DNA of 64,000 nucleotides from Candidatus Magasanikiibacteriota bacterium (GCA_041666745.1 JBAYGI010000001.1:91095-155094), one strand, 5' to 3'. Positions 18,477 through 21,463 are shown, counted from the stretch's first letter. Translations and numbers: made by a program. The notes: generated by a model not told the origin, from the sequence alone.

Positions 18477-18998
18477 TTATTTTATTGCTTCAGCACTTGT
18501 TTCGAATGTAAGTTTTTTGATCATCTCATATCCGCCAATCAACACACCGCTATAAAACAAATCTCCCAGTATTTCATTGCGCCAAAATGGTAGAGCCATA
18601 TAATAGCTTTGGAATAAACCGGATAAATTGTGAGCATACATTGTTCCAAAAGCCCAGACCGCTGTATTGGTAAGTAAGAAAAAAATAGCACTGCCGGCAA
18701 CCGCGCCCAAAGCAATATTTCCTAAACGTATTTTATTTTTTAGATATTGTCCCAATAAAACCGTTATGACAAATCCAACATAAACCGAAGCCATGATATA
18801 TGGGTTGTAAAAACCAATAAAGATATCGCTGATAAACATGATGATGACAGGCAAACAAAGGGCCTGTTTTTTGTTGAGATACAAACCGCCAAATAGGGCG
18901 ATGGCGCCGATAGCTGTGAAGTTGGCCGGATGTGGAATAAAACGGGTGGCGACAGCTAGAATAATGAGCAGATAGATGAGAATATTTTTATTTTTCAT
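18477..18998 (-). CDS. small polytopic membrane protein, ECF-transporter S-component-like; putative substrate-capture protein of the downstream corrinoid-like uptake operon
   Basis: 173 aa, about 5-6 TM, last gene of the operon DUF4430 / alpha-toroid protein / this gene. Assignment is by context only. Confidence 0.4.
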   Translation of the reverse strand: MKNKNILIYLLIILAVATRFIPHPANFTAIGAIALFGGLYLNKKQALCLPVIIMFISDIFIGFYNPYIMASVYVGFVITVLLGQYLKNKIRLGNIALGAVAGSAIFFLLTNTAVWAFGTMYAHNLSGLFQSYYMALPFWRNEILGDLFYSGVLIGGYEMIKKLTFETSAEAIK

Positions 18999-19025
18999 AG
19001 ATGTTTTTTAATTACTTGAGTTATA

Positions 19026-20735
19026 TTATATCACATTGCGGAGAAGTCTCAACCCTAGATAGAGACCTACCACCAGCGCGCTCCCACCGGAAATCGCCAG
19101 GATTCTTTTGGCGGTTTTTTTGGTTGGAGTGTCTAGGGGGAGATTGTCGATGATTTGGTTTTTGTCTTTAACGGCCGGTTCTGATTTTGTGATATTTTCT
19201 TCCGGTAGTGATGGTGGAATTTTTTTAATTTGATATATATTTTTATTACTAGTGGCAATTATTTGAGTGGTAGTCGTTGGGGTGGTGGTAGAAATGATAA
19301 TAGTAATTTTCGGAGTGGTGGTGGGGATTATGATTGGAGTAGTAGTGGCTTCGATAGTAGTTGTTGTGATCAGAGTAGTGGTGGAAATTATAGTGCTAGT
19401 AACAATCAGAGTGGTTGTAGCTGTCGGTTTATAATCTGGACCACCGCCCGGTTTTTGATCATCATTAATAATAGTTTTCGGTTCTAAAATAATGGGCCAA
19501 GTTTTTTCGAGTAAGGCCGGTATTGCATGTTTGGTGGCGAACCAATCGACACCGTCACTGCTCCAAGCCGAATTGTAATGATCCACACCATCCAAATTGG
19601 TGAGAATATACCATGGATTTTTTCCGGCAATATTGAACCAATCGTTTTGTTTTTCATTCAAAGCGTTGATACCCATCGTGACCCAACTGGTAGTAAGTGC
19701 GTCAGAGGTGTTGTTGCACCAAGCGACATCGTAACACCAGCCACCATCGGAAAGTTGCGAACTTTTTAAATATTGTTTTGCTTTTATAAAAATATTTTCA
19801 TCAATATTTATGCCTTTGGATTGAGCATATTTTAGGGCATTGATAGATGCACCGGTGATGTCCGGACTGGGAGAACCCCAAGAAATAAACGCGCCACTGG
19901 TTTGGTTTTGATTGGAGATGATGCCGTTTAGAGTGGATTGAACAGTTGCAGAGTTTAAAGTTTCATCCAAACTTAACATGGCCAATAAACCGAAAATGTC
20001 GTCGTTTATTCCGTATTCACCAAAAGCGCCATCTACTATGCAAGTGTCGTTAATTTTATTTTTTAAATCGGTAATTTTAATATCTGTTTTGGCTACTCCC
20101 GATGCCAAGAGTGCCAAAATATGACGAGGATATCCGGCACACGTGTTGCTGTCAGTGGTAGAAGTGATTGTAAAATTGTAGATATAATCTTTGAGGTCGG
20201 TGGTGCCGTTTTTTATGGTGTCAGAATAAATTTCTTTACTACCAAAAGCCATGGCCGACCAGTCGGAAATGCCACTATCTGAAATCTTGCCATCGGTTTG
20301 TTGTTTGGACTTTAAAAAATTAATTAATTTATCTACGACGTCATTTATTTTTTCAACAGAAATTGGGACGTTGGTTTGGGTTTCCGATGCGCCACCGGTG
20401 TTGTTGGTGGTGGTCGTGGTAGTGTTTTGATTAGTAGAAGTGGCAGTTGTGGTGCTGGTGGTATCAGTTGTAGTTGTGGCTACAACAGTGTTTTGGTCGG
20501 TAGAGGTGGGGGTGGTGCTAGTACTGGTGATGTTGTCTGAAGTGGTAGTAGTTAATGTGTTGTCGTCAGTTGAGGTAGAAGTCGGGTCGGGTGAAATTGT
20601 TGAAGTCGTAATGGTTTGTTCAGGAGTGGTAGTAGTAGGGTCAGTTGTTTCAGCACAAACACTACCTGTAAACCCAAATAGCGCAATACCTATGGCCACG
20701 ATAATTATTTTGTTTTTAAAATTGAGCTTTGGCAT
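19026..20735 (-). CDS. secreted or cell-surface protein with an alpha/alpha-toroid (prenyltransferase/squalene-cyclase-like) repeat domain, Thr-rich linkers and a C-terminal TM anchor; candidate corrinoid-binding alpha-domain
   Basis: Signal peptide, QW-like motifs (SDGGWCY, SGAFISWG), long Thr-rich low-complexity tracts and a C-terminal hydrophobic anchor. Overlaps the upstream DUF4430 gene by 20 nt. Confidence 0.55.
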   Translation of the reverse strand: MPKLNFKNKIIIVAIGIALFGFTGSVCAETTDPTTTTPEQTITTSTISPDPTSTSTDDNTLTTTTSDNITSTSTTPTSTDQNTVVATTTTDTTSTTTATSTNQNTTTTTTNNTGGASETQTNVPISVEKINDVVDKLINFLKSKQQTDGKISDSGISDWSAMAFGSKEIYSDTIKNGTTDLKDYIYNFTITSTTDSNTCAGYPRHILALLASGVAKTDIKITDLKNKINDTCIVDGAFGEYGINDDIFGLLAMLSLDETLNSATVQSTLNGIISNQNQTSGAFISWGSPSPDITGASINALKYAQSKGINIDENIFIKAKQYLKSSQLSDGGWCYDVAWCNNTSDALTTSWVTMGINALNEKQNDWFNIAGKNPWYILTNLDGVDHYNSAWSSDGVDWFATKHAIPALLEKTWPIILEPKTIINDDQKPGGGPDYKPTATTTLIVTSTIISTTTLITTTTIEATTTPIIIPTTTPKITIIISTTTPTTTTQIIATSNKNIYQIKKIPPSLPEENITKSEPAVKDKNQIIDNLPLDTPTKKTAKRILAISGGSALVVGLYLGLRLLRNVI

Positions 20736-21264
20736 ATGTCCATTTGATTAGATCGTTGTTTTTTAAAATATATAATGATACTCCCACTTTGGCCGACTGA
20801 CCGTTGATGTAATAAATCCAATATTCTCCGGTTTGATTATTATTTTTTAATCCATTAATTTCTTCGATAAAATATCCTAGTCCGTTATATTGTTTGGTCG
20901 TCATTGTGATTTGTTTGGTGTTGGTCAGTTTTTGCATCGCGTCATAAGCGGTGGATTTTTCAGGTAAGCTGACTTTGTGTTGCTGACTATTTATTTCTAT
21001 TGTAGTTTCAATCGGATTTTTTATTTCTTCACTAACCGGCGACGTGGTTTCAGTTTTTTGTATTTCCGGTTTTAAGTTTTTATTTTGGGTAATTTTATTT
21101 TCAGATATCGCCGTACTGGTGACTACATCTGTCCAAGGCAGGTTTTGGATTTCCGGTTTTGGTGTTTCGGTTTTTGGTTTGTCCGGTAAAAGCAGATAAG
21201 CGCCGGTAGATAAAAAAATAAAAGTAAAGATAAAAAATAGGCGAGTGAGGTGTTTGTTATGCAT
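20716..21264 (-). CDS. DUF4430-like (transcobalamin beta-domain-like) secreted protein
   Basis: N-terminal TM/signal. The C-terminal block AYDAMQKL...GLGYFIEEINGL...GEYWIYYINGQSAKVGVSLYILKNNDLIKWTY matches my memory of the DUF4430 pattern. Confidence 0.55.
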   Translation of the reverse strand: MHNKHLTRLFFIFTFIFLSTGAYLLLPDKPKTETPKPEIQNLPWTDVVTSTAISENKITQNKNLKPEIQKTETTSPVSEEIKNPIETTIEINSQQHKVSLPEKSTAYDAMQKLTNTKQITMTTKQYNGLGYFIEEINGLKNNNQTGEYWIYYINGQSAKVGVSLYILKNNDLIKWTYAKAQF

Positions 21265-21463
21265 ATTTATAAATTATAAAAAAAATCTTTCCCGAGGCGA
21301 AAAGATTCCAAAAAAGAAGATTCCTGCTCGGGATAATTATTATTTGAAGACCGGACTTGTTCTCGACTTAATCGAGACTTTACCGTTGCGGCACAGTAGG
21401 GGAATATGACCCCATTTCCACAAATAATATGTAAATTGTCTTGTTGATACACTACCAGCGAAA
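21265..21463 (-). promoter_or_regulatory. structured leader of about 170 nt, with a TTGACA -35-like promoter, upstream of the DUF4430 operon; candidate riboswitch (cobalamin-like or FMN-like resemblance, unconfirmed)
   Basis: The minus-strand RNA contains GGGGUCAUAUUCCCCUACUGUGCCGCAACGGUAAAG, reminiscent of the CCCGCAACUGUAA core. Hairpins ucucga-cuuaa-ucgaga. AGUCCGG half of a B12 box is present but GACCUGCC is absent. Confidence 0.3.

Follow-up and report, generated by a model that had tools for sequence, protein, structure and literature searches.

A single three-gene operon occupies positions 18437 to 21477 on the minus strand of a 64,000-nt stretch of Candidatus Magasanikiibacteriota DNA (Candidatus Magasanikbacteria, candidate phyla radiation [CPR]; GCA_041666745.1 JBAYGI010000001.1:91095-155094), the whole of which is called the window here. 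In the direction of transcription, the operon comprises a promoter, a leader RNA classed as a cobalamin riboswitch, three open reading frames (ORF1, ORF2, and ORF3), and a terminator; all features lie on the minus strand unless another strand is given. ORF1 (20716-21264) encodes 182 amino acids with a membrane anchor, a linker, and a DUF4430 domain. ORF2 (19026-20735) encodes 569 amino acids with a signal peptide, a Thr-rich stalk, a toroid domain, a Thr/Pro-rich stalk, and a C-terminal anchor, and its start lies inside the end of ORF1, with an overlap of 20 nt. ORF3 (18477-18998) encodes 173 amino acids with six transmembrane helices and belongs to DUF6580. The closest homologs of the three proteins are named Magasanikbacteria, and identical copies are present on one ENA metagenome contig. 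An earlier note, written from the sequence alone, had placed a corrinoid-binding protein pair, a small membrane protein, and a structured leader in this operon, and every element that it listed was found at the coordinates it gave.

Promoter and ends of the operon

The gene upstream of the operon encodes a GT2 glycosyltransferase (21464-22180), the stop codon of which falls between the two promoter boxes read from the sequence. The −35 box TTGACA (21472-21477) lies inside the 3′ end of the glycosyltransferase gene, and the −10 box TAGTGT (21449-21454) follows 17 nt past it, implying a transcription start at about 21442. In almost every orthologous leader, TTGAC(A/C/T) precedes the aptamer by the same distance, and TAnnnT-type hexamers again occur 17 nt past it at the −10 position. 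This conservation backs the TTGACA promoter named in the earlier note, even though TAGTGT is too weak to be detected in a consensus promoter scan.

A strong terminator hairpin (AAAAAAATATCCCAATTGGGATATTTTTTT, 18437-18466), located 10 nt past the ORF3 stop codon and reported on both strands by the terminator scan, marks the other end of the operon. Within the last codons of ORF2, ahead of ORF3, the consensus scan also returned TTGAGA-16-TG-TATAAT (19025-19052), which has 11 of 12 consensus matches and an extended −10 element. This site, a pattern match only, might be an internal promoter that allows expression of the putative S-component independently of the riboswitch.

A DnaA-box-like 9-mer (TTATCCACA or its complement, TGTGGATAA) occurs 3 to 12 nt upstream of the −35 box in many orthologs, in either orientation. 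The copy in the window is TTATACACA (21485-21493), and 41 copies with at most one mismatch are present in the window, where 20.6 would be expected.

Assignment of the leader to the cobalamin riboswitches

The leader is about 180 nt long and contains the core sequence in which the earlier note had seen a resemblance to cobalamin riboswitches. An Rfam scan of the whole window at gathering thresholds returned no riboswitch, only a tmRNA and two tRNAs, because the leader (21265-21463) scores 49.0 bits against RF01482, the adenosylcobalamin (AdoCbl) riboswitch model, one bit below the gathering threshold of 50 bits. In a permissive E-value scan, the same match is full length (model positions 1 to 149; E value, 4.3e-8). 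The aptamer (21311-21442), whose P1 helix is UAUUAUUU/AAAUAAUA, follows the RF01482 consensus, including GGAA...GGU..AUUCC, GCCGCAACGGUAA, and AAGUCCGGUCUUC.

Orthologous leaders were collected from 80 loci encoding relatives of ORF3, taken from species-representative genomes and all from CPR bacteria, some of the records being mislabeled by taxon. An nhmmer query with the window leader revealed that about 48 of these loci have a homologous leader upstream, in the same orientation, and 7 of the 12 orthologous leaders tested in Rfam reached or exceeded the gathering score, at 50.0 to 64.7 bits. When the Rfam structure of the window copy was projected onto a MAFFT alignment of 36 leaders, 84.8% of cells were paired versus 74.7% after shuffling, 16 of 24 pairs were altered on both sides, and the observed covariation score was equaled by none of 500 shuffles and by no slid register. 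In a model-fitted alignment, 89.1% of cells were paired and the covariation score was 0.507 versus 0.139. A covariance model built from the 36-leader alignment scored the window aptamer at 144 bits and identified it at 57 of the 80 loci, on the same strand and always upstream of the cassette. Two further loci carry an aptamer of the RF01689 class at the equivalent place, bringing those with a cobalamin aptamer to 59 of 80, and about 9 of the remaining 21 are truncated within 300 nt upstream.

Based on the Rfam match, the orthologs at or above threshold, and the covarying helices, the leader is assigned to the AdoCbl class of cobalamin riboswitches, and its ligand would be a cobalamin. For the window copy itself, the Rfam search proposed in the earlier note gave a full-length match with a score under the gathering threshold. 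According to the note, its claim would fall if leaders showed neither an Rfam hit above threshold nor conserved structure; this outcome did not occur, since orthologs pass the threshold and the structure is conserved among them. No paper joining the term "cobalamin riboswitch" with Patescibacteria was found in the literature. One locus (L076) has tandem cobalamin aptamers (4862-5010 and 5028-5180) ahead of a two-gene DUF4430-DUF6580 cassette. A 66-amino-acid ORF called by ENA across the riboswitch (21267-21467) was rejected as spurious, being open in only 3 of 42 orthologs.

Expression platform and direction of switching

Three nucleotides past the 3′ strand of P1 is a box, CCCGAGCAGG (21323-21332), that is nearly invariant in the 36 leaders. 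The box can pair with CUCGGG (21291-21296), which belongs to an intrinsic terminator or sequestor hairpin of the form GGAAUCUUUUC-GCCUCG-GGAAAGAUUUU followed by 8 U (21278-21309), ending 13 nt ahead of the ORF1 AUG. With the box free, RNAfold predicted a long-range antiterminator helix between the box and its complement (−16.1 kcal/mol) and no terminator; with the box withheld, the terminator formed (−9.9 kcal/mol). Most orthologs showed the same alternative folds. In most of 41 orthologous leaders, a hairpin with a U tract lies 30 to 80 nt downstream of the box and ends 0 to 25 nt short of the start codon, and the 5′ arm or loop of this hairpin is complementary to the box. A role for the P1 3′ strand in the antiterminator was ruled out, as folds A and C in the RNAfold comparison were identical. 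There is no separate Shine-Dalgarno sequence before ORF1, and the only purine-rich candidate is the 3′ arm of the terminator; burial of this stretch in the hairpin means that the hairpin may block transcription and translation alike.

The best proposal for the box is that it forms a P13/L13 element, with a CC/GG mini-stem and a CGAGCA loop. A P13/L13 element is part of the canonical architecture of cobalamin riboswitches. The CGAGCA loop is also found directly after P1 in RF01689-type leaders, where its flanks are CUU/AAG instead of CC/GG, and this sequence pattern suggests an L13-like loop shared by two riboswitch classes. Examples of CGAGCA downstream of RF01689-type aptamers are at L060:5405-5420 and L078:3985-4000, with others in L072, L080, and L082. 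A search for a canonical L5-L13 kissing interaction, pairing the invariant L5 (UGUGCCGCA) with loops of the terminators or with hairpins of the spacer, revealed no consistent complementarity; no more than about half of the terminator loops contain CGG, and that of the window copy does not.

From these pairings, a switch that is OFF with ligand can be proposed. Transcription from the TTGACA/TAGTGT promoter would start directly into the aptamer. In the absence of ligand, the box would pair with the 5′ arm and loop of the downstream hairpin, no terminator would form, and the three genes would be expressed. With cobalamin bound, the box would be held as P13/L13 docked on L5, the terminator would form, and expression would stop.

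The opposite direction, ON with B12, would have the free box invade the aptamer, allowing the terminator to form, and the bound aptamer release the box to build the antiterminator. In favor of such a switch, a free box always makes the antiterminator the more stable of the two structures, and the P1 3′ strand is in neither fold. An RNAduplex search for an aptamer partner of the box gave an inconsistent result: the box could pair with the 3′ arm (UCGGGAAC) of a variable peripheral hairpin in about half of the leaders, but in the other half this partner is not conserved, and P4 or nothing is found instead. The presence of CGAGCA after P1 in RF01689-type leaders also fits a P13/L13 docking element. 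The natural cobalamin riboswitches characterized so far are known as OFF switches, and repression by the product is normal for uptake genes. An ON switch is unlikely on these grounds, and the OFF direction is adopted, by analogy, in what follows.

ORF3 as a probable relative of the B12 S-component CbrT

ORF3 matches Pfam DUF6580 with an E value of 1.1e-50. NCBI names its relatives "putative transport protein," and no paper mentioning DUF6580 was found in the literature. An AlphaFold model of ORF3 (predicted local distance difference test [pLDDT] score, 85.6) has six helices, and all meaningful Foldseek matches to it were S-components of energy-coupling factor (ECF) transporters, at template modeling (TM) scores of 0.54 to 0.62 and weak E values (at least 0.17). 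These included the folate S-component 4huq_S, FolT, BtuM, PanT, ThiT, and RibU, with BtuM bound to hydroxocobalamin (8ovv) among the top matches (TM score, 0.62).

Because PDB searches with single sequences were nearly empty (ORF1 reached TCN1 at an E value of 0.27, and ORF2 and ORF3 had no match), family profiles were used. The ORF3 family profile (A2) had one PDB match, chain A of 6FNP, which is CbrT of the B12 transporter ECF-CbrT, at a weak E value of 0.067. Aligned by hhalign to the CbrT family, A2 gave a probability of 87.3% and an E value of 3.8e-6 over 146 columns, almost the full length. Two CbrT homologs about 56% identical to Lactobacillus delbrueckii CbrT (P0226 and P0236) matched DUF6580 at 36.5 and 37.3 bits, versus a threshold of 27, in addition to ECF_trnsprt.

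The CbrT assignment is supported most strongly by genomic context, specifically the DUF4430-CbrT gene pair in Lactobacillus. DUF4430 genes lie directly upstream of CbrT homologs in four loci (L083 to L086). In Lactobacillus helveticus the gene order is NrdJ-DUF4430-CbrT-PduO, and the DUF4430-CbrT pair stands by itself on another lactobacillus-type contig; nrdJ-cbrS-cbrT-pduO is the published cluster of the proven B12 transporter ECF-CbrT (PMC5997447). No riboswitch was found at the Rfam gathering threshold in two Lactobacillus-type cbrS-cbrT loci. As a working assignment from sequence and model comparisons, DUF6580 would be a divergent CbrT, and ORF3 a CbrT-like ECF S-component and the proposed B12 translocator of the operon. 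The ECF-S-like polytopic protein of the earlier note can in this way be described more precisely.

Among the 80 CPR loci, the cassette is syntenic, and DUF4430 is upstream of DUF6580 in 68 of them, in some with a toroid gene between. A two-gene CPR form, riboswitch-DUF4430-DUF6580, is found in loci such as L041, L056, and L076. Judged by sequence and gene order, the two-gene form corresponds to the cbrS-cbrT pair, into which the three-gene form of the window inserts a toroid gene. In two CPR loci the cassette is adjoined by a class II (B12-dependent) ribonucleotide reductase gene, with an RNR-II_ins_dom domain at L074:568-2895 (− strand) and Ribonuc_red_lgC and TSCPD domains at L059:2121-4640 (+ strand).

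ORF1 carries a transcobalamin-type beta domain

In ORF1, a low-complexity linker joins a hydrophobic anchor at the N terminus to a C-terminal DUF4430 domain at residues 104 to 178 (20731-20955), which matches Pfam PF14478 at 64.3 bits (gathering threshold, 23.8; E value, 1.4e-17). In the PDB, a family profile of 35 orthologs (A6) matched haptocorrin (TCN1; 4kki, 1e-6), intrinsic factor (2pmv and 3kq4, 2.8e-6), and transcobalamin (TCN2; 2bb6, 2.6e-4), with matches confined to the C-terminal beta domains. A Joint Center for Structural Genomics structure of a DUF4430 protein was also matched. The single invariant residue of the ORF1 family, W149, corresponds in the alignment to the Trp of the animal carriers' Y-W motif. 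The family also aligned with the protein at the CbrS position in L. helveticus at an hhalign probability of 97%. ORF1 is assigned from these profile matches as a transcobalamin-type beta (SLBB) domain equivalent to CbrS, and its type belongs to the clade that Burroughs et al. (2007; PMC1796856) termed "transcobalamin-like SLBB."

ORF2 as the proposed alpha partner of ORF1

The toroid core of ORF2 spans about 300 residues (approximately residues 116 to 413; 19497-20390) and was modeled by AlphaFold with a pLDDT score of 92.6 and 13 helices. The top Foldseek match was 8pak, a single-domain squalene-hopene-cyclase-like protein (TM score, 0.73), followed by drimenyl diphosphate synthases, and transcobalamin structures appeared from rank 14 at TM scores of 0.52 to 0.57. 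The ORF2 family profile (A1) matched squalene-hopene cyclase at 2e-28, with no match to a cobalamin binder or transcobalamin sequence; ORF2 of the window by itself scored 25.2 against SQHop_cyclase_C, for which the Pfam threshold is 26.1, and had no Pfam match to Cobalamin_bind (PF01122). By model and sequence, ORF2 is placed in the toroid (terpene-cyclase/prenyltransferase) superfamily, outside the Cobalamin_bind family. The link from ORF2 to B12 therefore comes from context: the riboswitch, the overlap with ORF1, and fusions of toroid and DUF4430 domains.

Fourteen orthologous loci preserve the 20-nt overlap between ORF1 and ORF2 exactly, and most others have overlaps of 11 to 32 nt. Toroid and DUF4430 domains are joined in one chain in L057, L069, and P0143, in the order found in transcobalamin, and in L032, in reversed order; the fused L032 protein also has a weak Cobalamin_bind match (E value, 0.0019). 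In the window, the alpha and beta domains are split over ORF2 and ORF1, unlike the single polypeptide by which the transcobalamin family is defined. A toroid homolog on a 2.7-kb Joint Genome Institute contig (P0129) has an N-terminal B12-binding_2 domain (PF02607; E value, 7e-9) and a weak B12-binding match; being on one short contig, it may be a chimera created by assembly or gene calling.

The cyclase-like fold raises the question of whether ORF2 could instead be an extracellular enzyme of the terpene-cyclase or prenyltransferase type, or a glycan-binding toroid, with an envelope role of its own, merely cotranscribed with a cbrS-cbrT pair. Squalene-hopene cyclase and drimenyl diphosphate synthase are the nearest matches in profile and fold, two-gene cassettes without a toroid exist, and a distant toroid subgroup in similar cassettes (P0130 to P0140) keeps D-I-D-D-T-A at the cyclase acid site, aligned to about 20190-20210 in ORF2. 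In ORF2 and its close relatives, however, the DxDDTA acid motif of class II cyclases is replaced by S-P-D-I-T-G-A, and a secreted, anchored protein has no obvious access to isoprenoid substrates. The fusions to DUF4430 in several relatives, the conserved stop/start overlap with ORF1, and the homolog fused to a B12-binding_2 domain also point away from an independent function, which we consider very improbable.

The protein features described in the earlier note were borne out: a DUF4430 beta domain within 20716-21264, now with family-profile matches to the beta domains of transcobalamin, intrinsic factor, and haptocorrin; a Thr-rich surface protein in which Thr-rich segments flank a prenyltransferase/terpene-cyclase-like toroid; and the 20-nt overlap between the two genes. 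Its split transcobalamin-like pair gains backing from the one-chain relatives and the conserved overlap, with the qualification that the toroid is structurally cyclase-like.

A probable corrinoid import operon

Taken together, the riboswitch, the three domains, and their conserved linkage argue that this CPR operon most probably serves to scavenge and import cobalamin (corrinoid) under the control of an AdoCbl-class riboswitch. Burroughs et al. (2007; PMC1796856) had predicted that proteins with precisely these combinations of domains scavenge B12. In the proposed mechanism, ORF1 would present its beta domain on an N-terminal membrane anchor, while Thr-rich stalks and a C-terminal anchor hold the ORF2 toroid off the membrane. 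The two proteins, cotranslated via the overlapping stop and start codons, would close around a corrinoid as the domains of transcobalamin do. The captured corrinoid would be passed to ORF3, which would carry it across the membrane, either docked to an ECF ATPase module encoded elsewhere or acting alone in the manner of BtuM.

Several findings weigh against this interpretation. The riboswitch score of the window itself is one bit short of the Rfam threshold (49.0 versus 50). The proposed L5-L13 contact comprises only 3 bp (GCA:UGC) between invariant sequences, which places it outside the reach of covariation, and pairing of the box with an aptamer helix arm, possible in about half of the orthologs, would reverse the logic of the switch. 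ORF3 itself has no match to ECF_trnsprt (PF12822), and the hhalign probability connecting its family to CbrT (87%) is below 95%. The ORF2 toroid is nearer to cyclase-like toroids than to the transcobalamin alpha domain and has no Cobalamin_bind sequence match. Corrinoid binding and transport are predictions only, both for the CPR cassette members and for CbrS. In a search for Walker A plus LSGGQ signatures, no ECF ATPase or T component was found within 6 kb of DUF6580 in 79 of the 80 loci or across the 64-kb window; the ATPase-signature match in L026 proved to be an unrelated 483-amino-acid ORF. The missing module is not decisive, because the Lactobacillus module is shared and encoded elsewhere, and BtuM and some BioY proteins work without an ECF module (PMC6072759).

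A split pair homologous to ORF1 and ORF2 in Lactobacillus sakei has been assigned to heme uptake (bioRxiv 10.1101/864751), which raises the alternative that the CPR cassette imports another tetrapyrrole such as heme, with a heme-binding split pair and a heme-specific S-component as in Lsa1836 to Lsa1840. The L. sakei arrangement is homologous (beta Lsa1839, alpha Lsa1840, ECF S, AA′, and T), and its S-component is without cobalamin-binding residues according to the same preprint. Heme import would leave unexplained a cobalamin riboswitch in 59 of 80 loci, in two aptamer classes, and would sit poorly with a nearest characterized ORF3 relative, CbrT, that transports B12 and with class II ribonucleotide reductase genes beside the cassette in two CPR loci and in Lactobacillus. 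Import of heme is quite unlikely in light of these associations, and a corrinoid remains the favored substrate.

Comparison with known systems

One of the closest known systems is ECF-CbrT, predicted by Rodionov et al. (2009) and described by Santos et al. (2018; PMC5997447), who proved CbrT to be a B12 and cobinamide S-component. As in the Lactobacillus cluster (L. helveticus and the lactobacillus-type contig), a DUF4430 gene is placed just upstream of a small six-helix S-component, the ECF module is outside the operon, and a B12-dependent ribonucleotide reductase is a neighbor in some CPR loci. The cassette of the window differs in adding a toroid gene and a cobalamin riboswitch and in having no pduO, and ORF3 belongs to Pfam DUF6580, not to ECF_trnsprt.

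The proteins analyzed by Burroughs et al. (2007; PMC1796856) share with the CPR locus the same two domains, secretion or anchoring, a predicted role in B12 scavenging by organisms unable to synthesize it, and genomic association with transport genes of the ECF type (CbiO/CbiQ). Their emphasis was on fused proteins of Firmicutes, encoded in operons that also contain ATPase and T genes, whereas the CPR locus has two overlapping genes, only the S-component linked, and a riboswitch. In L. sakei lsa1836-1840 (bioRxiv 10.1101/864751), a transcobalamin-like beta protein (Lsa1839) and alpha protein (Lsa1840) are likewise secreted separately and encoded beside an ECF S-component, but that locus has a fused AA′ ATPase and a T component, heme is the proposed substrate, and no riboswitch was reported.

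Animal transcobalamin, intrinsic factor, and haptocorrin clamp one cobalamin between an alpha6/alpha6 toroid and a beta domain, to which the ORF2 model and the ORF1 profile, respectively, show matches. Unlike the CPR proteins, the animal carriers are single soluble chains with a Cobalamin_bind toroid that are taken up by receptor-mediated endocytosis and have no S-component. BtuM (Rempel et al. 2018, PMC6072759) has the small S-component fold and imports B12 without an ECF module, and ORF3 likewise has no linked module. BtuM needs Cys80 in loop 3 as a cobalt ligand (PMC6072759), whereas DUF6580 has no sequence match to BtuM and no cysteine among the invariant or near-invariant columns of 29 sequences; C48 of ORF3 is not conserved. 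Relative to RF01482 and RF01689, the CPR leaders are distinguished by the lineage-specific invariant box and by a terminator-type platform immediately adjoining the start codon.

The concept of such a system is already known, its domain logic having been predicted in 2007 (PMC1796856) and its transporter type characterized in 2018 (PMC5997447), and nothing established is overturned. What this locus adds is CPR membership with very consistent synteny, two riboswitch classes that share CGAGCA and a terminator-type platform, DUF6580 as a putative branch of CbrT, and a doubly membrane-tethered alpha/beta pair that appears to be translationally coupled. Working functions can be offered for three poorly annotated families that are widespread in CPR bacteria: DUF6580 as a CbrT-like B12 S-component, DUF4430 as the CbrS beta half, and the surface protein annotated "prenyltransferase/squalene oxidase repeat" as the alpha half. 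The coupled pair also offers a hypothesis for CbrS, namely extracellular hand-over of B12 to the S-component. That reduced CPR genomes would invest in riboswitch-controlled B12 capture fits their reliance on cofactors from hosts or the community, a result useful for annotation and CPR physiology that will not surprise a specialist.

A more far-reaching scenario is speculative and, in our judgment, doubtful: CPR DUF6580 could be a solitary, BtuM-like importer that works without an ECF module and is fed by a two-chain, membrane-tethered split transcobalamin, serving B12 piracy by ultrasmall episymbionts that need B12 for ribonucleotide reduction, with the two-gene form nearer the ancestral state of the single-chain animal carriers.

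Other features of the window

Two ORFs downstream of the operon on the plus strand (15542-16978 and 17799-18305) had no Pfam match at an E value of 0.001; the first has a precomputed DUF8128 match. Rfam identified a tmRNA at 55149-55551 (− strand; 124.5 bits) and tRNA genes at 44773-44846 (+ strand) and 24984-25054 (− strand). An open frame exceeding 1,608 amino acids (59177-64000, + strand) continues past the right edge of the window and probably encodes a giant protein of a kind common in CPR bacteria.

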